64,000 bases of DNA from Elusimicrobiota bacterium (GTDB lineage Bacteria; CG03; SLGR01; JAGXOG01), in contig JBNJDT010000001.1 in NCBI GenBank assembly GCA_051745145.1, forward strand, positions 25,899 through 89,898, given 5' to 3'. Numbering within the stretch: position 1 is the first letter of the stretch; each line of letters begins with the position of its first letter. This document shows, piece after piece, positions 4,551-54,001 of this stretch. Made by a program: the position numbers and the translations under genes. The notes beneath the pieces were generated by a model, which was given only the letters and a program-made list of their open reading frames with translations, did no database searches and was not told where the DNA came from.

Positions 4551-6008
4551 TTAAAGATATTTTCTAACTACTTTTCTATCTGAAAAAGGAAATTTTTTAT
4601 CTTTAAAGATCTGGTATTCTTCATCTCCTTTACCGGCTATTAATATACAATCATCTGTTCCGGCTCTGGATACTGCTTCCTTTATCGCTTTCTCCCTGTC
4701 TTTTATAACATAATAAGGGGTAGATGTTTTTCGCAAACCCAATTCTATATCCAATAAGATATCAACCGGATTTTCCCACCGGGGATTATCTGAAGTCACG
4801 TAAACAACATCGGCATAATTACCGGCAATTTGTCCCATAAGCGGTCTTTTTTCCCTATCCCTATCTCCGCCGCAGCCAAACAGACAGATTAGTCTGCCCG
4901 TATTTAATTCCCTTAACGTTCTTAATACATTATCCAGGGCGTCCGGAGTATGGGCATAATCTATTACTACGGATTTATTATCCTCCCCCTCTGATCTTAC
5001 TATCTCCAGTCTTCCTTTTACCGGAGAAACTTCTGATATAACTTTACATACCTGTTGCATATCTTTACCTCCTTCTATTCCTGCCGCTATGGCAGCCAAA
5101 CTATTATATATATTAAATTCTCCTATAAGTTTAGTTTTTATCTTTTTCTCTAAATTTCGGTTTTTTAAGATAAATTCACTTTTAACCATATCTAATTTTT
5201 TAAGTTCTGCCCGATAATCCGCCTTTTCTTTAATTCCGTAAGTGACAGTCTTATAATTACTCGCCGAACAATGCTCTTTAACTAACCGGGTCCCATATTT
5301 ATCATCATTATTTACAATTGCCACTCCCTCCGGACTCAATAAATCAAATAAATGTTTCTTACTTTTGAAATACCCCTCAAAACCTCCGTGAAACTCCAGA
5401 TGATCTCTGGTAAGATTGGTAAATACTGCTGTATCAAATTTTATATCTTCAACCCTTTTTAGAGAAAGAGCGTGGGAAGAAACTTCCATAACTATATTTT
5501 TAACCCCCTGGTCTAGTAATTTTTTAAATAATCTATGTAATTCATTAGGTAAAGGAGTGGTCATATCGAAATTTCCGGTCTCATTTTTATAAAAATACCC
5601 GGAAGTTCCTATAAGAGCGGTGCACTCCTGTTTTTTAAGTATTCTGTATATTAAATTTGTAACTGTCGTTTTCCCGTTAGTTCCCGTCACTCCCGTAAAA
5701 GATATTTTTTTTGCCGGAAACCCATTAATAGCTGCCGACCATTTAGAAAGAACCCGGCGGGGTTCATCTACCACTATGTCGGGGATATAACTATTACCGG
5801 TATTCTCATCGCTGACCACCGCTAACGCCCCATTTGAAGCAGCTTCTTTTATATATTCTTTGCCGTGGGTTTTCGAACCCGGAAAAGCAAAAAACAATCC
5901 GTCTTTTTTTACTTTTTTAGAACTTGTATAAATATCATTTATTTCAATATTAAAGTCCCCGTCGAAAAAATCAGGCTTATAGTATTCAAATAAATCAGCT
6001 AATCTCAT
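4551..6008 (-). CDS. murE: UDP-N-acetylmuramoyl-L-alanyl-D-glutamate--2,6-diaminopimelate ligase
   Basis: 485 aa. P-loop GVTGTNGKTT, with Mur ligase central and C-terminal domains. Confidence 0.85.
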   Translation of the reverse strand: MRLADLFEYYKPDFFDGDFNIEINDIYTSSKKVKKDGLFFAFPGSKTHGKEYIKEAASNGALAVVSDENTGNSYIPDIVVDEPRRVLSKWSAAINGFPAKKISFTGVTGTNGKTTVTNLIYRILKKQECTALIGTSGYFYKNETGNFDMTTPLPNELHRLFKKLLDQGVKNIVMEVSSHALSLKRVEDIKFDTAVFTNLTRDHLEFHGGFEGYFKSKKHLFDLLSPEGVAIVNNDDKYGTRLVKEHCSASNYKTVTYGIKEKADYRAELKKLDMVKSEFILKNRNLEKKIKTKLIGEFNIYNSLAAIAAGIEGGKDMQQVCKVISEVSPVKGRLEIVRSEGEDNKSVVIDYAHTPDALDNVLRTLRELNTGRLICLFGCGGDRDREKRPLMGQIAGNYADVVYVTSDNPRWENPVDILLDIELGLRKTSTPYYVIKDREKAIKEAVSRAGTDDCILIAGKGDEEYQIFKDKKFPFSDRKVVRKYL

Positions 6009-10118: not shown

Positions 10119-10191
10119 TCGATTTACCTCCTGTTGCCATTTTTTTTAAAACCCAATTTATATTCAATTTGTATGCCTGTAAAACTAAAAA

Positions 10192-10431
10192 GAAACTTCT
10201 GTAAGCCGGATTCTGTTTTAACGGTCATTTATCTGGGCGGTCTACCCAAAGCTCAAATGCCACGGGCCGCGGCTCGCTTTCTATTTGACCTCGCTTTTTC
10301 CGGGGTTTAACCTTTTCACTACGGCATTTCCGTACTTAGTTTCTGTGTCACTTTCCCGAAATGCCCTGTAAAGTCCGGACTTTCCTCTCCCTAATTAATA
10401 TCTAATCAGAGAGCGACCGATCAGAAGTTTC
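10192..10431 (-). ncRNA. rnpB: RNase P RNA (bacterial type A-like, minimized, about 240 nt)
   Basis: The minus-strand transcript contains the universal P4 strands GGAAAGUCCGGAC...UACAGGGCA and ACAGAAUCCGGCUUACAG. A perfect 10-bp P1 stem (5' GAAACUUCUG with 3' CAGAAGUUUC) delimits the molecule. It sits in a GC-elevated 364-nt intergenic gap. Confidence 0.8.
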
Positions 10432-10482
10432 TTTTAATTATTATTTAACTTTACTCTGAAATTTTAAATCCTGCGGCCAATG

Positions 10483-20455: not shown

Positions 20456-21496
20456 CTATTTCTCGTCCGTCGGAGTGGCATACTCTATAGTTCTTATGGG
20501 AAACGGAATAACTATTCCCTCCCTATTATATCTTTTATGTAATCTCTTTATAAATTCATGCTGTAACGTAAATCTGTTAAAATATTCTTTAACTCTTAAG
20601 ATTATCTTTAAATCAATAGAGGAATCGTTAAAAGTAGTAAATCTTACTTTGGGTTCAAAAGTACCGTCTCCCCCTTTTATATCTTTTAAAACCTGCTTCG
20701 CTATTTCTATAGTTACTTTTTCTACTTTTTCCAGGTCACTTTCATAGGATACACCTACCGGGATTCTCAAAATACAATTTTTCCCGGATAAATTATAATT
20801 TGTAACAATTACATTGCCCAGGGTAGAATTTGGTATTACTATCATATTTTCTTCCCTGGTCTTTATTGTTGAATTCCTCCAGGTTATATCTACAACTTCT
20901 CCCTGTTGCCCGGATTCTAACATAACAAAATCACCTACCCGGACCTGGCCGGCAAAAATTATTTGTAACCCGGCAAAAAGGTTTGATAAAGTTTCCTGAA
21001 GGGCTAAAGCCACAGCCAGTCCTCCTACACCCAGTGCTGTTATAAGAGGAGTTATCTTTATGCCCAGACTCTGAAATACTAATAACAAGCCTACTACAAA
21101 TACCGCTATCTTTATAAGAGTTACAACTATAGTAGTTGACTGGAGTCCGGACTGGGCCCTATCTGCATAATATTTGGCCAAATTTGCTATTACCTTTATT
21201 ACTGCAAAAGTAACTGTAGTAATAAATAATATTACAATTGTATTTGTAATAAATCCGCCGGTTTTAGCGGAGACCCCAAAGAATGGAAATGCTATTCTTG
21301 CGCCGACAAGAAAAAACCAGAAACTTATATATGATTTAAAAGGTTCTATAACATACTTCCAAAATTCGTTTATTTTTGTTACAGCTTTTACTAAATAATT
21401 AAACAAAAATTTTTTTATCACCACTCCCGCTAACCAGAAAGAAAATACTATGGCAACAGGTGTAATAAACGAAGGATTTAAAAATTTTTCAAGCAT
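20456..21496 (-). CDS. mscS: Mechanosensitive ion channel (MscS family)
   Basis: 346 aa. N-terminal TM helices, then the conserved MscS beta-domain (GDFVMLESGQQGEVVDITWRNSTIKTREENMIVIPNS). Confidence 0.8.
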   Translation of the reverse strand: MLEKFLNPSFITPVAIVFSFWLAGVVIKKFLFNYLVKAVTKINEFWKYVIEPFKSYISFWFFLVGARIAFPFFGVSAKTGGFITNTIVILFITTVTFAVIKVIANLAKYYADRAQSGLQSTTIVVTLIKIAVFVVGLLLVFQSLGIKITPLITALGVGGLAVALALQETLSNLFAGLQIIFAGQVRVGDFVMLESGQQGEVVDITWRNSTIKTREENMIVIPNSTLGNVIVTNYNLSGKNCILRIPVGVSYESDLEKVEKVTIEIAKQVLKDIKGGDGTFEPKVRFTTFNDSSIDLKIILRVKEYFNRFTLQHEFIKRLHKRYNREGIVIPFPIRTIEYATPTDEK

Positions 21497-25360: not shown

Positions 25361-26554
25361 TTATTTTTCTATAAATTTTTTAAACTTAGTTAATCCTTCT
25401 TCCATTTCTTCAGCTGATATTCCGGAATAGGCAAATCTAATATATTTCTCGGTCTCTCCCGGCAATTTTTTACCGAAATGTAATCTGGTGCAAAAAGATA
25501 CTCCGGTTTCATGAAGCACAGTTTTTCTAAATTCCGAATAAGTATCTATTCCCAGTTTATCCATAGCCTCCGTTACATTGGGGAATAAATAAAAAGTCGT
25601 CTGGGGTTTAAAACATTTCACTTCTTTAATAGAATTTAAAATTTCAAATCCCACGTCTCTTCTTTTTTCAAGGGTATTCAGTATATTTTTTACCCCGGAC
25701 TGGTCACCGGTAAGTCCTTCAAGAGCACCGTACTGAACAAAATGATTAGAACAGGACTCGTCATTAGTATTTAATTTTCCTACAATCGGCGCTATATCAT
25801 CGGGGGCAATAGCCGCTCCCAATCTCCAGCCGGTCATAGCAAATTTTTTAGAAAATGTATAGGCAATTACACACCTTTCCTGCATTCCGTCAAGGGAGGT
25901 TAGCGATTTTGATTTTCCCGAATACCTAATATCAAAATAAGCTTCATCACAGAGCACATATAAATCATGCTTCCTGACCAAACCAGCAATCCTTTCTAAT
26001 TCCTCTTCGGAAGCTTCGGCAGCCATGGGATTTTGAAAATCGTTAAAAATTAAAATTTTTGTGTTCTCTGTAATAGAATTTTCCAGACCGTCAAGATCAA
26101 GTTTGAAACCTTCTTTTCCTTCCCTATAAGTATAGGGCACCGGAATACCTCCATGAAACTCTATCTGGGATTCGTAAATCGGATAACCGGGGTTGGGATA
26201 GAGGACTTCATCGCCAGGATTCATCAAAGCCAAAATAAATTTCCCTATAACAGGTTTTCCGCCGGGTTGAATGATAACATTTTCCATACTGTAGTCAGTA
26301 TTATGGGATTTATTAATATCTTCTGCCAGGGCCTCTCTGAGAGAATCAATACCCGCATTAGGGCAGTAACCCGTCTTACCATCTTTTATAGCTTTAAAAG
26401 TGGCTTCCTGTATATTTTTCGGGGTGGGTAGATCAATATCTCCAAGATGAAAGGGGTAAATTTTATTTCCCTGAGCCGCAAACTCCGAAGCTTCCTGAGA
26501 TACGGCAAATGCCGTTTCTGTTCCTAAACGTCCAATTCTTTTTGCTAATTTCAT
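25361..26554 (-). CDS. PLP-dependent aminotransferase, class I/II (aspartate aminotransferase-like)
   Basis: 397 aa. PLP-lysine region FSKKFAMTGWRLG, with conserved NPxGxP-like and DExY segments. Confidence 0.8.
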   Translation of the reverse strand: MKLAKRIGRLGTETAFAVSQEASEFAAQGNKIYPFHLGDIDLPTPKNIQEATFKAIKDGKTGYCPNAGIDSLREALAEDINKSHNTDYSMENVIIQPGGKPVIGKFILALMNPGDEVLYPNPGYPIYESQIEFHGGIPVPYTYREGKEGFKLDLDGLENSITENTKILIFNDFQNPMAAEASEEELERIAGLVRKHDLYVLCDEAYFDIRYSGKSKSLTSLDGMQERCVIAYTFSKKFAMTGWRLGAAIAPDDIAPIVGKLNTNDESCSNHFVQYGALEGLTGDQSGVKNILNTLEKRRDVGFEILNSIKEVKCFKPQTTFYLFPNVTEAMDKLGIDTYSEFRKTVLHETGVSFCTRLHFGKKLPGETEKYIRFAYSGISAEEMEEGLTKFKKFIEK

Positions 26555-26778
26555 TTTTTCCTCCGTATTCTTTACTAATTATCTTTTTCCTTTTGATTTT
26601 TTATGTTATAAAAAAATTATAAAAAATTCAACTAATTAGACATAATTCATTAAGTATAATTGTGAAATTTGATAAATACTTTTAAAGCATTATGGTATTA
26701 ATTAGTTATCCGGTATATACAGCTATTTAATAGATTAAAGAACTGAAAATATACATTTATATTTAGGAGTTAGCCAAA

Positions 26779-28083
26779 ATGTCAGATAAAAAAAATGTTA
26801 AAGAGACAATAGATAATAATAATCGCGAAAAATCAGAATGGAAAGACTATCAATGGCATTTAAAACATTCCATTAAAGATATAGAAACTTTTCAAAAATT
26901 AACGGGTATAGAATTTAACAAAGAGGAGAAAGCAAAACTAAAAAAAACTCTACAAAAATTTCCGCTTTCTATTACCCCTTATTATCTATCTTTAATTAAA
27001 AAAGAAAATTATAAAAAGGATCCCATATTTAAACAGGCTTTTCCCGATCCCAACGAACTTATAGTGACTAAATACGATATGGAAGATCCCCTCCATGAAG
27101 ATGAAGATAAGCCTGTACCGGAAATTACCCACCGGTATCCGGATAGAGTATTATTTACAATAAGTAACCAGTGTTCCATGTACTGCCGGCACTGTACCCG
27201 GAAAAGAAAAGTTGGGGATACAGATTATATTCCCTCTAAAAAAACTGTCAAAAAGGGAATTAAATATATTAAAGAGACCCCCCAGATCAGAGATGTAATT
27301 TTATCCGGCGGAGATCCCTTAATGCTTTCCGATGACTATCTGGACTGGATCCTTACTGAAATAACTAAAATACCCCACGTTGAAATGGTAAGGATCGGTA
27401 CCCGATTTCCGGCGGTTTTGCCATTCAGAATAACAGATAGTCTGGTTGAAATTTTAGCTAAACATCATCCCCTGTGGTTAAATACCCAGTTTAACCACCC
27501 GCGGGAGCTAACTTCCTCAGCTCAAAAGGCGCTGAAGAAACTGGCCGATGCCGGAATTCCTCTGGGAAATCAGTCGGTATTACTGGCCGGCGTTAATGAT
27601 TGTCCCAGGATAATTAAAAATCTCATGCATAAGTTGCTTCAAAACCGGGTTAAACCATATTATTTATACCAGTGTGATTTAACTGAAGGACTCTTTCATT
27701 TTCGGACCCCCGTAGGGAAAGGAATCGAAATAATCGAAAACATGATAGGTCACACAAGCGGACTGGCTGTACCGACTTATGTTATAGACGCTCCGGGAGG
27801 CGGGGGTAAAATACCGGTTATGCCAAATTACCTTATTTCCTGGTCAACCCGAAAAGTAGTCTTGAGAAATTATGAGGGAAATATAACTACTTATAAGGAA
27901 CCCGATTCTTACGAACCGGTATTTTGCGACCGTAATTGTGATGGCTGTAAACTTCAGCTGGATCTTGAAGGGGCTGCAGAATATAAATCCCGGGGAATAG
28001 TAAGCTTATTATCACACCATGATAACACTTCTTCCCTCATACCCGAAGGAACTGATAGAATAAATAGAAGAACAGATACCTAA
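26779..28083 (+). CDS. kamA: L-lysine 2,3-aminomutase (radical SAM)
   Basis: 434 aa. Radical-SAM [11 protein letters not shown] motif identical to KamA. Full KamA length, with conserved PLP-binding region. Confidence 0.85.
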
Positions 28084-28084
28084 T

Positions 28085-29413
28085 ATGACTGAAAAAATAC
28101 TCCTAATAGGAAGCTGGGCTAAAGAGCAGATAACAATAGAAAATATAAAACAAAGTTCTACTTACCGGGTATTCTGTTATCTAAGTACTAAAAATCCGGG
28201 AATACTTAAACTGGCCGACGGGTATAAAATCGGAAGTTTATCCGATAATAAAAACATAATTCAATACGCCCGGGATATCAAACCGGATTTAGTGCTAATT
28301 ACTACAGCCTCCCCCCTTTCAAATGGACTCACTGACGTACTCGAACGGGCCGGCTTTTCCGTATTTGCTCCCAGTAAACAGGCCGCCCGGCTGGAAATAG
28401 ATAAAGCTTACGCCAGAAATATTTTAAAAGAAATTGATATGGATATAGTTCCAAAATTCGGAGTTTTTAAGAAAATAGAAAAAGGCATAGAATTTGCCGG
28501 AAAATTAAACTGGGATGTAGCCGTTAAACCGGTGGGACTTACCGAAGGTCTGGGGGTAAAAGTTTCAGATGAACAGCTCAAAACCAAAGAGGATATAAAG
28601 AATTATATCCGGGAAATTTTAAATAAAAAAATAAGCGGAAAATCAAAAGTTCTTATAGAAAAAAAGTTAACCGGAGAAGAATTCACAATACAGTGCCTGG
28701 CATATGACGGAACAATTATTCCCACTCCGGCCGTTCAGGATTTTAAAAAATTAAAACCCAATGATAAAGGGCCAAATACGGCAAGCATGGGCTCTTACTC
28801 GGATACAAAAAAAATACTTCCCTTTTTAACACCAGAAGAATACCGATACTCTCTTAAAATAATTCAAAAGACTGTGAATTATTTTACTCAAAAAACAGGC
28901 AAAGATTGCCGGGGGTTTTTATACGGCCAGTTTATTCTAACCCCTTCGGGTATTAAAGTTGTGGAGTATAATTTCCGGCCCGGAGATCCGGAATGGATGA
29001 ATACTCTTACAGTTCTTAAAGATAATATAGCTGATAAAATTTTTAGTTTAATGAAAGGTAATGATATAAAATTAAATTTTAAGAATCGGGCCACCGTCTG
29101 CAAATATATAGTGCCCCGGGACTATCCCCGGAAATTATATCAGGAACTGGATATTGCCTTTCCTGAAGATAAATTAAAGGATTTGGGAGTAAATTTCTAT
29201 TACAGCGGGGGAATAGTTTCGGGGAACAGGTTAAATGTAGGTAAAGAAAGAGGAGTTGCTTTTATAGGTCAGGGGAATTCCATTGCTAAAGCAAATAACA
29301 GTGTAGAAAAAGCTATCTCATTGATAAAAGGTAATTTTAGATACAGATGCGATATCGGCTCTGAAAAATTAATTAATTCTAAGAAAAAGTATGTGAGGGA
29401 GGCAATAAGATAA
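28085..29413 (+). CDS. PurD-like ATP-grasp ligase (divergent; the canonical GSGGREHA motif is replaced by GSWAKEQI)
   Basis: 442 aa. GARS-like N domain, ATP-grasp B domain (VAVKPVGLTEGLGVKV) and C domain. It is 2 nt downstream of kamA and 3 nt upstream of the GNAT gene. Confidence 0.6.
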   Translation: MTEKILLIGSWAKEQITIENIKQSSTYRVFCYLSTKNPGILKLADGYKIGSLSDNKNIIQYARDIKPDLVLITTASPLSNGLTDVLERAGFSVFAPSKQAARLEIDKAYARNILKEIDMDIVPKFGVFKKIEKGIEFAGKLNWDVAVKPVGLTEGLGVKVSDEQLKTKEDIKNYIREILNKKISGKSKVLIEKKLTGEEFTIQCLAYDGTIIPTPAVQDFKKLKPNDKGPNTASMGSYSDTKKILPFLTPEEYRYSLKIIQKTVNYFTQKTGKDCRGFLYGQFILTPSGIKVVEYNFRPGDPEWMNTLTVLKDNIADKIFSLMKGNDIKLNFKNRATVCKYIVPRDYPRKLYQELDIAFPEDKLKDLGVNFYYSGGIVSGNRLNVGKERGVAFIGQGNSIAKANNSVEKAISLIKGNFRYRCDIGSEKLINSKKKYVREAIR

Positions 29414-29415
29414 AT

Positions 29416-29919
29416 ATGAAAAATTCAGATTTTAATATTCGTGAAGCTAAAGAAGAAGAATTTTTAAAATTGCATAAATTTGTGGCCAACTGCCCTCCCC
29501 TGGAACAGTATCCGGTTCACTTATACAAATTAACGCTCAGGTATTTTCGAAATACGTGTTTTATCGCAGAATTAAACGGCAATTGGGCTGGTTTTCTTAC
29601 AAGTTTTATCTCCCAGGTAAATCCGGAAAATTTATTTATGTGGCAGATAGGCATTCATCCTGATATGCAGGGTAAAGGACTTGGCAAAAAAATTTTAAAA
29701 GCAGCAGAAAAAAAATTAAAGAAAAGAGGAATCAAAAAAATAGAATTAACCGTGGATCCTGAAAACAGTCCTTCCCAGAAATTATTTACCGGCATGGGGT
29801 ATAAAAACATAAGTAAAGATGAAGGGGAATGTGTAAATATTAATAATACACCGGCAGTTAAAGATTTTTACAAACCGGGCAGACATTTTACGGTTTTTCA
29901 AAAAAAATTAAATATTTAG
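29416..29919 (+). CDS. GNAT family N-acetyltransferase
   Basis: 167 aa. Acetyl-CoA-binding motif QIGIHPDMQGKGLGKKIL. Last gene of the kamA operon. Confidence 0.75.
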   Translation: MKNSDFNIREAKEEEFLKLHKFVANCPPLEQYPVHLYKLTLRYFRNTCFIAELNGNWAGFLTSFISQVNPENLFMWQIGIHPDMQGKGLGKKILKAAEKKLKKRGIKKIELTVDPENSPSQKLFTGMGYKNISKDEGECVNINNTPAVKDFYKPGRHFTVFQKKLNI

Positions 29920-29939
29920 AATAGTAAAATTTTATTTTT

Positions 29940-31640
29940 TTATCTATCAGTATATAGATATCTTTTTATTTTGCGGGTAGTTGTTTTCTGAAATTCTTCC
30001 TGCTGAATTTTAAAATATTTCACTTTCTTAAAAGCCGGTAAGTTTTCAGTATATTTTTTTATTTCTTGATTTATTATATTATAAATGGACTCTTTACTCT
30101 CTTCAACTTTCTTCTCGCTAAAATACTTATCTAAATTTTCATGATCCGGATAAATAAGAGCAGCTACTTTCTCATTTTTATTATCCATTTCCTTACCATA
30201 CACCATTGCTTCACTTATATAATCGCTGTGTTGTAACTTTGCTTCAATTTCTTCGGGGTATACATTTTTACCCGCCGCAGTAACAATAACGTTTTTAGAC
30301 CGGCCCTTAATGTACAGACAATTATTATCATCGATATAACCTATATCGCCAGTTTTGAGCCAGCCGTTATCCATAACTTTTCGAGTAGCTCTATCATTTT
30401 TAAAATAACCGCTCATTACGTTATCCCCCTTTGCTTCAATCTCCCCGTAACCTTTTTCGTTTTTATTTTTTATTCTAAGTTTAACTCCGTCAATTGGTTT
30501 GCCTACCGATTCTAAGCCGGCAGGAACTCTGTAATTTACGGTTAAAACCGGTGCCGTTTCTGTTAAACCATACCCCTGTACAAACTCTATCCCCAGCATA
30601 TCAAAAAAATCGCCGGTTGAGGGTACCAGCGGAGCTCCGCCGGAAACCATTAACCTGAGTGTACTGAGACCCGCTTTCTGCCTAACATTTTTAAATACCG
30701 CAGAACCGGCATTAATATTAACTTTATTTAAAACTTTATTAACCCCTTTAAAAGTTGTGAAAATTACCCGTTTTAAAATAGAAGAATTTTTTACTTTTCT
30801 GTTTATTGCATTTTTAAAAGAATCAAAAAGAGCCGGGACCCCAAGCATTACAGTAACTTTTTGGTCTTTCATATACCGGACAATTTTAGTGGCCCGAAGA
30901 GTATTAGAAAAAACTACTTTACTTCCCACCGCTAACGGGATTAACATGGTACCTGCGGCCGGGAATGCATGGAATAACGGCAAAATAGCTACAAATACAT
31001 CGTCTTTTTTAAATTTTATTATAGAAGGTATAGCATCTATCTGATGAAGTAAATTACCGTGAGTAAGAGAAACGCCTTTCGGAGACCCGGTTGTACCGGA
31101 AGTATATAAGATCGCCGCCAGATCATTCTTATCTCTTTTTTCTAAACCCGGATAATTGTCTATACCTTTTATATTAGTTTCGTTTTTAAGAATATTTTTT
31201 AAGCTCTTCTCCCCGTTATAGGGCCGGGATGTATCAGTTACTATAGCTTCTTTTATATTTAAACCCGATCTTATCTCCAGGTTTAAGCCATCATAAATTT
31301 TTGAATCCGTAAATAGAATATCGGCCTTGCTATGCCTCAGAAAATGGATATTATCACTGGCATGTAATTTAGTATCCAGCGGCACTACGGGAATACCTAA
31401 AAAATGGGCGGTAAAATATACTACTGTCCAGTAATGAGAATTTTCAGCTAACAGGGCTATCTTAGAATTATCATCTATTATACCGGCTTTTAATAAATAG
31501 CCGGAAAGCTTTAATACATCCTCCCTGAAATCCCCGTAAGTATATTTTTTATACCCATCATCGACCGGTTCTACATGGGCAATGCCGTCATTATAGAATT
31601 CTGTCCTATCAAGAAAAAATTGAGCTAAATTTTTATACAT
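29940..31640 (-). CDS. AMP-dependent synthetase/ligase (long-chain acyl-CoA synthetase-like)
   Basis: 566 aa. AMP-binding motif YTSGTTGSPKGV and a C-terminal adenylate-forming domain. Its start abuts the phoH2 stop. Confidence 0.8.
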   Translation of the reverse strand: MYKNLAQFFLDRTEFYNDGIAHVEPVDDGYKKYTYGDFREDVLKLSGYLLKAGIIDDNSKIALLAENSHYWTVVYFTAHFLGIPVVPLDTKLHASDNIHFLRHSKADILFTDSKIYDGLNLEIRSGLNIKEAIVTDTSRPYNGEKSLKNILKNETNIKGIDNYPGLEKRDKNDLAAILYTSGTTGSPKGVSLTHGNLLHQIDAIPSIIKFKKDDVFVAILPLFHAFPAAGTMLIPLAVGSKVVFSNTLRATKIVRYMKDQKVTVMLGVPALFDSFKNAINRKVKNSSILKRVIFTTFKGVNKVLNKVNINAGSAVFKNVRQKAGLSTLRLMVSGGAPLVPSTGDFFDMLGIEFVQGYGLTETAPVLTVNYRVPAGLESVGKPIDGVKLRIKNKNEKGYGEIEAKGDNVMSGYFKNDRATRKVMDNGWLKTGDIGYIDDNNCLYIKGRSKNVIVTAAGKNVYPEEIEAKLQHSDYISEAMVYGKEMDNKNEKVAALIYPDHENLDKYFSEKKVEESKESIYNIINQEIKKYTENLPAFKKVKYFKIQQEEFQKTTTRKIKRYLYTDR

Positions 31641-34801: not shown

Positions 34802-35494
34802 TTAACCGTCTTCTATAAGTATGTCGTGAAGTTTTTTAAAATCGACAAATTTACTGCTCTTTTTATCCATAATTCTCATATTATCGCAGTTCATAGTATC
34901 TATGACAGCTACCCGGTTGTCTCTTTCCCCAAACTCCACTTTTATATCTACAAGTTCTAAACCGTATTTTTCCAGATCCTCATTTATTATCCGGGCCACT
35001 TTTTTAGTAAGGGCTTTAGTTTTTTTTAAATTTTGCGGTGAAATTATATCCAGTTCCAACAGAGTTTCATCATTTATAAGGGGGTCATGTTTTTTATCGT
35101 CTTTTATAGTTATTTCCACCAGATAATTCAGCTTTTTAAATTTTTCGATATAATTTTCATAACGCCTTAAAAAACTTCCAAATGCCCTAAGTCTACATAT
35201 AAACTCCAATCCCTGACCAAAAATTTTAGATTTTTCAACTAAAATCGCCGTTTTTTCTTCTATAGTTTCAAGATAGTGATTCTCAATTCCTCTATCGGAA
35301 AGAAGTTGAAAAAAATATTCGGTGAGTTTCATACAGTAGTATTTTTTACCTTCTATATTCCCTACGACCTGATCTCCCCCGGAATCAGGTTGACCGTTAT
35401 TTCCCAGCACGGTATCCCGGAACTTCATAAGCAGCCGGTTATTTGAATGGGGAATTACTACTTTTGTCTTGCCCTTATAGAGTTTTTGGTCCAT
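34802..35494 (-). CDS. purC: Phosphoribosylaminoimidazole-succinocarboxamide synthase (SAICAR synthetase)
   Basis: 230 aa. LYKGKTKVV..., LVDIKVEFG and a D...R.MD block align with E. coli PurC motifs. Confidence 0.75.
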   Translation of the reverse strand: MDQKLYKGKTKVVIPHSNNRLLMKFRDTVLGNNGQPDSGGDQVVGNIEGKKYYCMKLTEYFFQLLSDRGIENHYLETIEEKTAILVEKSKIFGQGLEFICRLRAFGSFLRRYENYIEKFKKLNYLVEITIKDDKKHDPLINDETLLELDIISPQNLKKTKALTKKVARIINEDLEKYGLELVDIKVEFGERDNRVAVIDTMNCDNMRIMDKKSSKFVDFKKLHDILIEDG

Positions 35495-52425: not shown

Positions 52426-52498
52426 TTGAAAGCATTCACTTTTTTTTAAAAACTTTATAACTGAATTAACTTTATTATTGCCTTTAGCAGTCCACAAA

Positions 52499-52558
52499 AG
52501 TACTAAAAAAAATAAGTACCTTAAACCGATTGACATAAACTATTAACTATATTATAGT
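52499..52558 (+). promoter_or_regulatory. Flp cassette 1 promoter: inverted repeat AGTACT-N10-AGTACC, then TTGACA, 17-nt spacer, TATAGT
   Basis: Seen directly in the sequence. -35 at 52530-52535 and -10 at 52553-52558. The inverted repeat lies immediately upstream (52499-52520). The SD AAAGGAGGT is 8 nt before the ATG. The same element layout is repeated before the other two cassettes. Confidence 0.6.
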
Positions 52559-52617
52559 TATAGTGAGACTAGGGAGAAAAGAATATATATTTAAATTTAA
52601 AAAAGGAGGTAAAAAAA

Positions 52618-52785
52618 ATGAAACATTTATTATGTGATGAATCAGGTCAGGGAATGACTGAGTACATTTTAATTGTTCTGTTAATTGCTATTGCCGCATT
52701 CGTTATCATGCAGGCATTTGGTAACACAATTTCAGAAGCCTTCAACGACGCTAAGAAAACCGTACAGAACGCAAGACCTGATTAA
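52618..52785 (+). CDS. flp: Flp/Fap family pilin (class III prepilin), copy 1
   Basis: 55 aa, MKHLLCDESGQGMTEYILIVLLIAIAAFVIMQAFGNTISEAFNDAKKTVQNARPD, with the Flp motif G/xxxxEY plus a hydrophobic stretch. Strong SD. The gene is missed by the 60-aa ORF track. Confidence 0.8.
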   Translation: MKHLLCDESGQGMTEYILIVLLIAIAAFVIMQAFGNTISEAFNDAKKTVQNARPD

Positions 52786-52813
52786 TCCCAAAATTAAGAA
52801 GGTAACAAGCATA

Positions 52814-52860
52814 CTTCCGGAGTTTTTTATAAAGCTCCGGAAGTTGCATTTACAATGGTC
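52814..52860 (+). terminator. Rho-independent terminator after flp copy 1
   Basis: CUUCCGGAGUUUUUUAUAAAGCUCCGGAAG hairpin (9-14 bp stem) followed by a U-rich tract. The sequence is conserved after all three cassettes. Confidence 0.6.
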
Positions 52861-53223
52861 AACAAAACCTTAAAATCAAACTCCAGTATCCACTTACCTG
52901 CTGCATACCGTAGCCGCAGGATATCCAGTTAAATCCTTCTCACCAGGATATGCCCTCCTGCTGTAATTATCAAAAGTACCCACTTTGCGGATATTATCAA
53001 CTTAAGATCATAAATCCGTAGTCTCCCTCCTGAAATTGAGAAAGATTGCCCGGTACCGGTTAAACTGCTCTTATCATTGTGAGCGGAGACCAGAATAATA
53101 GTTCTGCTGACAGTAAAGCTCTAATAATTGAAATAATACAGTCAAATTTCTATAACGTTAATTACTTCAAAAATGTAATTATTTAATAAATTATCCGGCC
53201 TATTTTTTCTAATATACCCTAAA

Positions 53224-53283
53224 AGTACTATAAATAATCAGTACCTTAAACCGATTGACATAAAAAGCTAACTGTATTATAAT
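53224..53283 (+). promoter_or_regulatory. Flp cassette 2 promoter: inverted repeat AGTACT-N10-AGTACC, then TTGACA, 17-nt spacer, TATAAT
   Basis: Perfect consensus -35 (53255-53260) and -10 (53278-53283). Conserved upstream inverted repeat at 53224-53245. SD GAGGAGGT. Confidence 0.65.
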
Positions 53284-53339
53284 TATAGTGAATTAAAGGA
53301 AAAGAGAGTGTAAGAGGAATTTAAGAGGAGGTAAAATAT

Positions 53340-53507
53340 ATGAAACATTTATTATGTGATGAATCAGGTCAGGGAATGACAGAATACATTTTAATTGTTC
53401 TGTTAATTGCTATTGCCGCATTCGTTATCATGCAGGCATTTGGTAACACAATTTCAGAAGCCTTCAACGACGCTAAGAAAACCGTACAGAACGCAAGACC
53501 TGATTAA
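53340..53507 (+). CDS. flp: Flp/Fap family pilin, copy 2 (protein identical to copy 1; synonymous nucleotide differences)
   Basis: 55 aa identical to copy 1. For example, GAATGACAGAATAC here versus GAATGACTGAGTAC in copy 1. Confidence 0.8.
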   Translation: MKHLLCDESGQGMTEYILIVLLIAIAAFVIMQAFGNTISEAFNDAKKTVQNARPD

Positions 53508-53535
53508 TCCTACAATCAAGAAGGTAACAAGCATA

Positions 53536-53577
53536 CTTCCGGAGTTTTTTTTAAAAGCTCCGGAAGTTGTGTTTTAT
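53536..53577 (+). terminator. Rho-independent terminator after flp copy 2
   Basis: CUUCCGGAGUUUUUUUUAAAAGCUCCGGAAG, then UUGUGUUUUAU. Confidence 0.6.
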
Positions 53578-53636
53578 ATCATAAATTTTTAAGTAACTAT
53601 TCTACAATTTCCTTCCGGTCTATTTTTAATAACAAA

Positions 53637-53696
53637 AGTACTATATATAATTAGTACCTTAAACCGATTGACATAAAAAGCTAACTGTATTATAAT
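53637..53696 (+). promoter_or_regulatory. Flp cassette 3 promoter: inverted repeat AGTACT-N10-AGTACC, then TTGACA, 17-nt spacer, TATAAT
   Basis: -35 at 53668-53673 and -10 at 53691-53696. Inverted repeat at 53637-53658. SD AAAGGAGGA. Confidence 0.65.
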
Positions 53697-53753
53697 TATA
53701 CTGTATTAAGGAAAAAGAGAATATAAGAGGAAATAATAAAGGAGGAAAAATAT

Positions 53754-53921
53754 ATGAAACATTTATTACGTGACGAATCAGGTCAGGGAATGACTGAGTA
53801 CATTTTAATTGTTCTGTTAATTGCTATCGCTGCATTTGTTATCATGCAGGCATTTGGTAACACCATTTCAGAGGCTTTTAACGACGCTAAACAAACTGTA
53901 GGGAACGCAAGACCTGATTAA
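53754..53921 (+). CDS. flp: Flp/Fap family pilin, copy 3 (variant: C6R, K47Q, Q51G)
   Basis: 55 aa, MKHLLRDESGQGMTEYILIVLLIAIAAFVIMQAFGNTISEAFNDAKQTVGNARPD. Confidence 0.8.
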   Translation: MKHLLRDESGQGMTEYILIVLLIAIAAFVIMQAFGNTISEAFNDAKQTVGNARPD

Positions 53922-53949
53922 TCCTAAAATTAAGAAGGTATAAAGCATA

Positions 53950-53990
53950 CTTCCGGAGTTTTTTTTAAAGCTCCGGAAGTTGTGTTTTTT
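53950..53990 (+). terminator. Rho-independent terminator after flp copy 3
   Basis: CUUCCGGAGUUUUUUUUAAAGCUCCGGAAG, then UUGUGUUUUUUAU. Confidence 0.6.
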
Positions 53991-54001
53991 ATAAGAATTT
54001 A

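Follow-up and report, generated by a model that had tools for sequence, protein, structure and literature searches.

Several described systems resemble parts of the locus analysed here. In the AblA/AblB pathway of methanogens and Methanoperedens, which leads to the compatible solute N-epsilon-acetyl-beta-lysine, beta-lysine is made by a lysine 2,3-aminomutase and its amine is then neutralised by acetylation. A diamino acid is likewise the substrate of EctA, the L-2,4-diaminobutyrate N-gamma-acetyltransferase of ectoine synthesis, which also serves osmolyte formation. The N-acetylglutaminylglutamine synthetase Ngg, which Sagot and co-workers reportedly described in 2010, is said to combine a GNAT and an ATP-grasp domain in one polypeptide and to make an N-acetylated dipeptide compatible solute (NAGGN). 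In the pyrrolysine route, lysine is rearranged by a radical SAM enzyme (PylB) that does not belong to the KamA-type aminomutases, and an amide with a lysine-type amine is then made by an ATP-grasp enzyme (PylC) that is unlike PurD; the route has no GNAT. PurD itself is the glycinamide ribonucleotide (GAR) synthetase, EC 6.3.4.13, of the purine pathway. Here we report on a 64,000-nucleotide stretch of DNA from an Elusimicrobiota bacterium (assembly GCA_051745145.1, contig JBNJDT010000001.1, positions 25,899 to 89,898 of the forward strand; the whole stretch is called the window below), in which the lysine 2,3-aminomutase gene kamA is followed by a gene for a PurD-fold ligase and a gene for a GNAT. 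The case that the middle gene represents a distinct, conserved and misannotated enzyme family is strong. We consider it likely that the encoded protein is not a PurD, but a ligase that acts together with the GNAT and, in loci linked to kamA, on beta-lysine.

The cassette and its leader are arranged as follows (window positions).

26555-26778, + strand: AT-rich intergenic leader between a divergent aminotransferase gene and kamA, by sequence reading

26779-28083, + strand: open reading frame (ORF) 1, 434 aa, kamA/ablA, lysine 2,3-aminomutase (radical SAM, pyridoxal phosphate (PLP)-dependent)

28085-29413, + strand: ORF2, 442 aa, putative PurD-fold ATP-grasp carboxylate-amine ligase of a neofunctionalised clade

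29416-29919, + strand: ORF3, 167 aa, EctA-like GNAT N-acetyltransferase, partner of the ligase

The genes are tightly packed, with 1 nt between ORF1 and ORF2 (TAA-t-ATG) and 2 nt between ORF2 and ORF3 (TAA-at-ATG); an earlier note on this DNA had counted 2 and 3 nt, but its coordinates for the genes are exact. A Shine-Dalgarno-like AGGAG is found about 8 nt 5' of the kamA start codon, and GAGGGAGG lies within the 3' end of ORF2, ahead of the GNAT start. Since the flanking genes on both sides are on the strand opposite to kamA-ligase-GNAT, the three genes form a self-contained operon.

ORF1 scored 754 bits against TIGR03820 (lys_2_3_AblA, cut-off 525) and carries Radical_SAM and LAM_C domains together with the radical-SAM cluster motif. 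Homology above this curated cut-off identifies it as a genuine AblA-type lysine 2,3-aminomutase that would convert L-lysine to beta-lysine. The earlier note had called the enzyme authentic on the strength of a motif, which is indeed present. The cassette therefore shares its first enzyme with the AblA/AblB pathway.

ORF2 matched all three PurD domains in Pfam (GARS_N, 1.8e-16; GARS_A, 1.3e-40; GARS_C, 8.2e-07), the GARS_C match of 29.7 bits being under the gathering cut-off of 34.8. An AlphaFold2 model of the protein (pLDDT 91) found PurD 2yw2 as its best Foldseek match (TM score 0.87-0.91). The best matches were all PurD, at TM scores of 0.8-0.9, and nothing but PurD came closer. Domains and model thus bear out the assignment to the PurD-fold ATP-grasp enzymes that had been made from the translation. 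With archaeal-type PurDs (Methanobacterium, Methanothermococcus), ORF2 has in common the three-domain fold, the residues for ATP/Mg and for glycine and the acyl-phosphate, and the motifs LYGQF and VCKYxVP.

All this could mean that ORF2 is the organism's ordinary PurD, placed by chance between kamA and the GNAT gene. It scored 297.0 bits against TIGR00877 (purD), nominally 9 bits over the cut-off of 288. This score counts against the reading preferred here, and it accounts for the NCBI annotation of ORF2 as phosphoribosylamine--glycine ligase. There is also a divergent purC-like gene at a distance of 5 kb. We nevertheless regard an ordinary PurD as very improbable, for reasons that lie in the active site, in the phylogeny and in the gene neighbourhood.

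In order to compare active sites, we aligned ORF2 with 120 database relatives and three PurDs of known structure, and in a second comparison set 45 members of the family against canonical PurDs, 39 of them archaeal and 3 bacterial (residue numbers are those of ORF2). The ATP/Mg residues E104, K107, K148, E192, E199, K221, E294 and N296 are kept in the ligase family. The PurD residues for glycine and the acyl-phosphate, D219, R298, D301 and E303, are invariant across it; according to published descriptions of the PurD site, their counterparts are Asp212, Arg287 and Glu292 in the Aquifex enzyme and Asp217, Arg292, Asp295 and Glu297 in the human enzyme. The situation is different for phosphoribosylamine. 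A study of human GARS assigned the phosphate and ribose of this substrate to the Arg13/Glu14 motif, the helix 75-80 and the neighbourhood of Arg385, and every one of these elements is replaced in the ligase family by family-specific invariant residues. The compared motifs read as follows.

N-terminal motif: GxG(A/G)REHA in PurD, GSWAKEQI in the ligase family (window residues 9-16)

Helix start (phosphate cap): GPE in PurD, TTA in the ligase family

B-loop: GL(T/A)xGKG in PurD, GLT(E/D)GLG in the ligase family (GLTEGLG in the window)

J-loop: GPNTGGMG in PurD, GPNTASMG in the ligase family

PurD motif: R(L/F)GDPE(A/T) in PurD, RPGDPEW in the ligase family

C-domain: (S/G)(S/G)R in PurD, xER in the ligase family (GKERG in the window)

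W11, A12 and K13 are invariant in the ligase clade, whereas all 39 complete archaeal and the 3 bacterial PurDs in the comparison have GxG(A/G)RE(H/N). The PROSITE GARS motif PS00184, R-[LF]-G-D-P-E-x-[EQIM] as quoted in PMC3261824, is broken in ORF2 (R298-P-G-D-P-E-W-M) by a proline at position 2, and RPGDPEW is found throughout the clade. In the B-loop, the lysine has become leucine and an acidic residue has been gained (E/D154). New in the clade are the invariant tryptophans W11 and W304, the acidic residues E/D154 and E388 (the latter beside R389), and lysine for arginine at position 13. As judged from the alignments, the net change is a loss of phosphate-binding features and a gain of two tryptophan and two acidic residues. 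This may reflect a change of substrate, the anionic sugar-phosphate amine giving way to a cationic alkyl-amine. The clade-specific residues were placed by means of the alignment to PurD structures and of published accounts of the site.

The earlier note had pointed to the change from GSGGREHA to GSWAKEQI as the loss of a motif binding glycine and phosphoribosylamine. The change is real, but GSGGREHA is a phosphoribosylamine/phosphate element. The glycine site is located elsewhere and has been kept (D219, R298, D301, E303).

A neighbour-joining tree of 85 sequences separated the ligase clade from all canonical PurDs, archaeal as well as bacterial, in 100 of 100 bootstraps. A comparison of this kind with true PurD had been suggested before, and its outcome, a separate clade with its own invariant substitutions at the phosphoribosylamine site, agrees with neofunctionalisation. 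Family members shared on average 54% of their residues with one another, against 38% with archaeal-type PurD and 28% with bacterial PurD. The ligase of the window is 44-62% identical to members from Elusimicrobiota, Omnitrophota, Atribacterota, Methanoperedens, Thermoplasmatales and Asgard archaea, so that identity across phyla and domains clearly exceeds the roughly 28% to bacterial PurD, and even the bacterial members are nearer to archaeal than to bacterial PurD. This suggests an accessory, horizontally moved unit derived from archaeal-type PurD, an origin that is also indicated by the shared motifs LYGQF and VCKYxVP. When 1.84 billion proteins were clustered at 50% identity, the core ligase family was reduced to a handful of representatives, suggesting a tight group that is either young or strongly constrained. 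All clade members that bear a name are labelled phosphoribosylamine--glycine ligase; the databases mislabel the ligase as PurD.

ORF2 thus has the fold and the catalytic core of PurD, and it lacks the motifs and the phylogenetic position of a GAR synthetase. For an ordinary PurD, the loss of GxG(A/G)REH, of the GPE helix start, of the B-loop lysine and of the PROSITE motif, all invariantly across the clade, would be hard to explain, as would fusion to a GNAT in many genomes.

The distribution of the family was determined by a scan of one genome per species (185,579 species). It identified 43 ligase-family loci in at least 12 phyla of both domains. The bacterial hosts belong to Omnitrophota, Elusimicrobiota, Atribacterota, Calditrichaceae, KSB1, Cytophagia, Bacteroidales, Acidobacteriota, Planctomycetia and Anaerolineales, the archaeal hosts to Methanoperedenaceae, Methanocellaceae, Thermoplasmatales and other Euryarchaeota; Promethearchaeia were added by a database match. 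The GNAT gene follows the ligase gene or is fused to it in all 42 evaluable loci, and 32 of the 43 loci have kamA immediately upstream. Thirty of these 32 upstream genes encode proteins that are 66-80% identical to the KamA of the window, and the other two are divergent KamA-family genes of Bacteroidales. Ligase::GNAT fusions of about 610-625 aa occur in about 17 of the 43 loci (roughly 40%) and in 26 of the 120 best database clusters. One locus (L010, 4630-7302) contains a single ORF of 890 aa with KamA and ligase in frame and no stop between them, which looks like a natural KamA::ligase fusion, although a stop codon could have been lost through a sequencing error. The locus comes from a metagenome-assembled genome (MAG) named "bacterium isolate CSMAG_2252".

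Canonical PurD genes behave differently. In the same scan of species genomes, none of 39 evaluable archaeal canonical purD loci had a kamA or GNAT neighbour, and conversely no pur gene recurs next to the ligase gene, which has kamA and the GNAT gene as its neighbours. A search started from the GNAT gave 6 matches, and the contexts checked were all kamA-ligase-GNAT; the sample is small, and kamA-GNAT pairs may exist. The same gene order in dozens of unrelated genomes, together with the fusions, makes the arrangement far beyond chance. The co-occurrence that had been put forward as a check on the three genes is therefore present, with the GNAT as the constant and kamA as the frequent partner. 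We propose that horizontal transfer has carried the cassette back and forth between anaerobic archaea (Methanoperedens, Thermoplasmatales, Asgard) and bacteria (Elusimicrobiota, Omnitrophota, Atribacterota and others). Clustering of flanking ORFs revealed only one other recurrent partner, an MscS channel gene, in about 10 of 46 loci, mostly from Methanoperedens. As no other partner recurs, any co-substrate of the pathway should be a common metabolite.

The third protein, ORF3, has an Acetyltransf_1 domain. Its best NCBIfam model was EctA (TIGR02406), with 82.5 bits under a cut-off of 120.6, and the closest solved structures were also EctA (3d3s and 6sjy; E-values 1e-18 to 1e-16). At the motif level, at which the two were compared, ORF3 and EctA share an N-terminal CPPL(D/E)...TC.(I/V)AE region and an LF.WQ(I/V) motif. 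EctA is thus the closest family, but ORF3 differs from it by the score below cut-off, by its pairing or fusion with a PurD-like ligase and by the absence of ectB and ectC nearby.

ORF3 did not match the AblB model TIGR03827, and tblastn found no AblB homologue anywhere in the 64-kb window. Methanoperedens AblB, which scored 348 bits on TIGR03827, is 23% identical to ORF3 over 70 aa that cover the generic GNAT core only. AblB (about 270 aa) is also considerably longer than the EctA-like GNAT of 167 aa. Hence the AblA/AblB logic that had been invoked for the locus is right in so far as AblA and an acetyltransferase are present. It is an analogy and not a homology with respect to the second enzyme, which is EctA-like and not AblB-like. 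The obligatory ATP-grasp ligase of the cassette is a further difference from AblA/AblB, and some Methanoperedens loci hold AblB in addition.

Methanoperedens provides an informative genomic context. All 10 of its loci are headed by an MscS channel gene, and in M. nitroreducens-like loci the order is MscS-kamA-ablB-ligase-GNAT, followed by a gene for a 604-aa KamA-family radical SAM protein. In a study of salt stress in Methanoperedens, kamA-ablB and the MscS gene were induced by salt, N-epsilon-acetyl-beta-lysine accumulated, and no role was assigned to the genes that follow ablB ("unknown function"; PMC11337218). Relatives of the cassette described here therefore sit behind the MscS gene in a salt-induced operon, which is a second likeness to AblA/AblB. 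Since some of these loci hold AblB as well as ligase and GNAT, the GNAT is probably not a mere substitute for AblB. Another locus (L004) has genes for MscS channels, Na+/H+ exchangers, Usp and trehalose-phosphate synthase/phosphatase as neighbours, and dapB just before kamA. The genomic context favours a role in compatible-solute formation without proving one.

The 604-aa protein of Methanoperedens (L001, 9858-11672; also L017, L025, L026, L032 and L057) has an N-terminal extension of about 190 aa and scored 316 bits on TIGR00238, without reaching the cut-off of any aminomutase equivalog. The operon may contain in it a second aminomutase that is as yet uncharacterised.

These findings bear on the possibility that the cassette simply makes N-epsilon-acetyl-beta-lysine, with the GNAT as a non-homologous replacement of AblB and the ligase as an accessory or unrelated protein, serving further conversion, regulation or ATP-dependent salvage. 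The substrate that EctA acetylates at its distal amine is a diamino acid similar in geometry to beta-lysine, itself a diamino acid; most cassettes lack AblB, so that some enzyme would have to acetylate beta-lysine if this were the product; and N-epsilon-acetyl-beta-lysine is the sole salt-responsive beta-lysine metabolite reported in Methanoperedens (PMC11337218). Such a scheme leaves the constant presence of the ligase, the strong constraint on its active site and its frequent fusion to the GNAT unexplained. It would also make AblB and GNAT redundant where they occur in one operon, as in some Methanoperedens, and GNAT homologues were never found with kamA alone in the few contexts examined. 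We therefore consider it rather improbable that plain acetyl-beta-lysine is the product, and prefer a pathway in which the ligase takes part.

In this proposed pathway, the three genes would be translationally coupled in one operon, and the end product, made from L-lysine, would be a derivative of beta-lysine that bears an amide linkage and an acetyl group. In the first step, shown by the homology of ORF1, KamA/AblA isomerises L-lysine to beta-lysine. In the second, the ligase would form an acyl-phosphate from a small amino acid, as suggested by the retained glycine site, and would transfer the acyl group to an amino group of beta-lysine rather than to phosphoribosylamine, as suggested by the rebuilding of the nucleophile pocket for a cationic substrate. 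In the third, the EctA-like GNAT would cap the remaining free distal amine with an acetyl group from acetyl-CoA, in keeping with the acetylation of diamino acids at the distal amine by related enzymes. The order might also be reversed, with the GNAT making N-epsilon-acetyl-beta-lysine first, for the ligase then to extend. The earlier note had expected that the combination of KamA, ligase and GNAT adds an amide bond to beta-lysine; co-conservation and phylogeny support this expectation, and the nature of the product is an inference.

The claims within this proposal differ in strength. That the clade is the first case of a GAR-synthetase fold with a function outside purine synthesis, as an amino acid:beta-lysine ligase that makes an N-acetyl-aminoacyl-beta-lysine "dipeptide" osmolyte together with the GNAT, is a tentative claim to which we give slightly less than an even chance. 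Our confidence is low in the most specific version, in which glycine or another small amino acid is placed on the epsilon-amine of beta-lysine and then acetylated, yielding N-epsilon-(N-acetylglycyl)-beta-lysine or an isomer. The proposed product would be a zwitterion that resembles N-epsilon-acetyl-beta-lysine, though with one residue more, and it most likely serves as a compatible solute.

Alternatively, beta-lysine might be the acyl donor, and the acceptor might be beta-lysine or lysine (giving an isopeptide or oligomer), ammonia, or its own epsilon-amine (giving a lactam), with the GNAT again as the capping enzyme. The isopeptides or oligomers would be reminiscent of streptothricin side chains and of PylC chemistry, and the PylB/PylC pair is a precedent for the ligation of a radical SAM lysine mutase product by an ATP-grasp enzyme. 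A reaction of beta-lysine alone would fit the lack of a conserved co-substrate gene adjoining the cassette (MscS in about 10 of 46 loci apart), and the bulky W11 and W304, which fill the space of phosphoribosylamine, are compatible with a smaller or intramolecular nucleophile. The product could then be a solute, or it could be a secondary metabolite or an envelope modification unrelated to osmoprotection. The residues that hold glycine are invariant, and the replacements of GG by AS and of A by W add bulk instead of making room for a 3-aminopropyl side chain. Moreover, the informative contexts are osmotic, and transporter, resistance or non-ribosomal peptide synthetase genes do not recur. Activation of beta-lysine itself is for these reasons unlikely in our view, and we retain the pathway with a small amino acid as acyl donor and beta-lysine as acceptor.

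In addition to the TIGR00877 score, a number of observations weigh against this pathway. Substrates, product and sequence of steps are all deduced from residue patterns and gene neighbourhood only. In 11 of the 43 loci there is no adjacent kamA, and 10 of these encode the fused form. Some of these loci may use an amine other than beta-lysine, or their kamA may be located in another part of the genome. There is also a more distant pair of a PurD-like protein and an EctA-like GNAT (L087) without an adjacent kamA. Together with the 11 loci that lack an adjacent kamA, this pair suggests that ligase and GNAT form the deeper unit, with kamA as its usual supplier. Two Bacteroidales loci have the cassette inserted between obg and hpt, and one of them (L037) also has purE close by; the proximity to hpt and purE is probably coincidental. 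Finally, the osmotic context of the window itself is weak. Its MscS-family gene (20456-21496, - strand) stands outside the operon, 5 kb upstream of kamA and in the opposite orientation; the encoded protein is 32% identical to the MscS that heads the kamA operons of Methanoperedens.

Among the loci without kamA, three have a sugar-porter gene upstream and one a gene for a threonine-synthase-like enzyme. The latter locus (L049, Euryarchaeota archaeon SCGC AAA252-I15) encodes the PLP enzyme at 4968-5972 (PRK06381, 368 bits), before ligase and GNAT, and hints at a different supplier of the amine or amino acid.

More divergent PurD-like proteins (L087 1563-3402, P0124, P0129, P0134, P0184) have GRWGK, GRWAK, GKWSK or ANEAREE as N-terminal motifs and RPGDSE, RPGDPEF or RPGDPEV in place of RPGDPEW. 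The GNAT gene of L087 (the context of P0129) lies downstream, and the adjoining radical SAM gene belongs to the AmmeMemoRadiSam type. Amines other than beta-lysine may therefore also be substrates of the ligase-GNAT pair.

The most divergent version of the cassette is found in the Bacteroidales loci L034 and L037, with DSWSKGQI, PTAA, GLTGGLG and GPNTGSMG at the motif positions listed above. Their upstream KamA-family gene encodes a protein that is 42% identical to the KamA of the window and scores below all equivalog cut-offs. Judged by this divergent KamA-family gene, the substrate in Bacteroidales may differ.

Compared with the systems described at the outset, the cassette belongs by sequence homology to none of AblA/AblB, Ngg and PylB/PylC. 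Ngg, with its pairing of GNAT and ATP-grasp ligase, is the nearest precedent for the proposed logic. The relationship is a functional analogy: the match to TIGR03103 was 18.5 bits against a cut-off of 569 and involved the GNAT only, and the ATP-grasp subfamily, the domain order and the substrates differ. The likeness to PylB/PylC is also one of analogy. What we rate as new is the extension of a solute pathway based on beta-lysine by a PurD paralogue that has been neofunctionalised. In the literature searched, no paper connected a PurD-like or ATP-grasp ligase with kamA or with beta-lysine, in line with the earlier statement that the pathway is not a described one.

If the proposal is correct, a textbook fold of the purine pathway has acquired a new enzyme activity, and the short list of microbial compatible solutes probably gains a new member. 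It would also provide a hypothesis for the "unknown function" genes that the methane oxidiser Methanoperedens carries in its salt-induced kamA operon. Because of the annotation error, purine pathways can be called more complete than they are in MAGs of Omnitrophota, Elusimicrobiota, DPANN-associated and Asgard lineages. For biochemical reconstitution, ready-made constructs exist in the natural fusions (ligase::GNAT and the one KamA::ligase).

The surroundings of the operon in the window were inspected as well. An E-value scan of 26300-30200 (leader and operon) with Rfam identified no family and no recognised riboswitch, and counts of promoter and terminator patterns at the operon were at the level of shuffled sequence. 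Within about 8 kb on either side, there are genes for MscS, YihY, an aminotransferase of the AspAT/DapL type, an acyl-CoA ligase and a PurC-like protein, and, by reading of the translations, for dCTP deaminase-like, PhoH-like and TatD-like proteins. None of the flanking genes of the window recurs in related loci according to the clustering of flanking ORFs. The divergent aminotransferase gene (25361-26554) was considered as a part of the pathway and rejected, because it had only one weak match among 46 related loci. Beta-lysine 5,6-aminomutase and catabolic genes, as in the lysine fermentation operon (kamA-kamDE-kdd-kce-kal), were absent within about 8 kb of kamA. PADLOC gave no defence-system match for any of the three proteins, and a search of IMG/VR contigs for viral or mobile carriage found no relative.

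The PurC-like protein (34802-35494, - strand; 230 aa) scored 101 bits against a TIGR00081 cut-off of 190 and is either a short or divergent SAICAR synthetase or a paralogue. Farther away, a region of about 1.6 kb (52426-54001) has no ORF of at least 110 aa on either strand and no Rfam or tRNA match at gathering thresholds. A bacterial class A RNase P RNA is encoded at 10187-10432 (- strand). It is unusually compact, with 246 nt in a match that spans the full 367-position model, and it adjoins tRNA-Val and tRNA-Met genes and is located downstream of the dcw (mraZ-murD) cluster.

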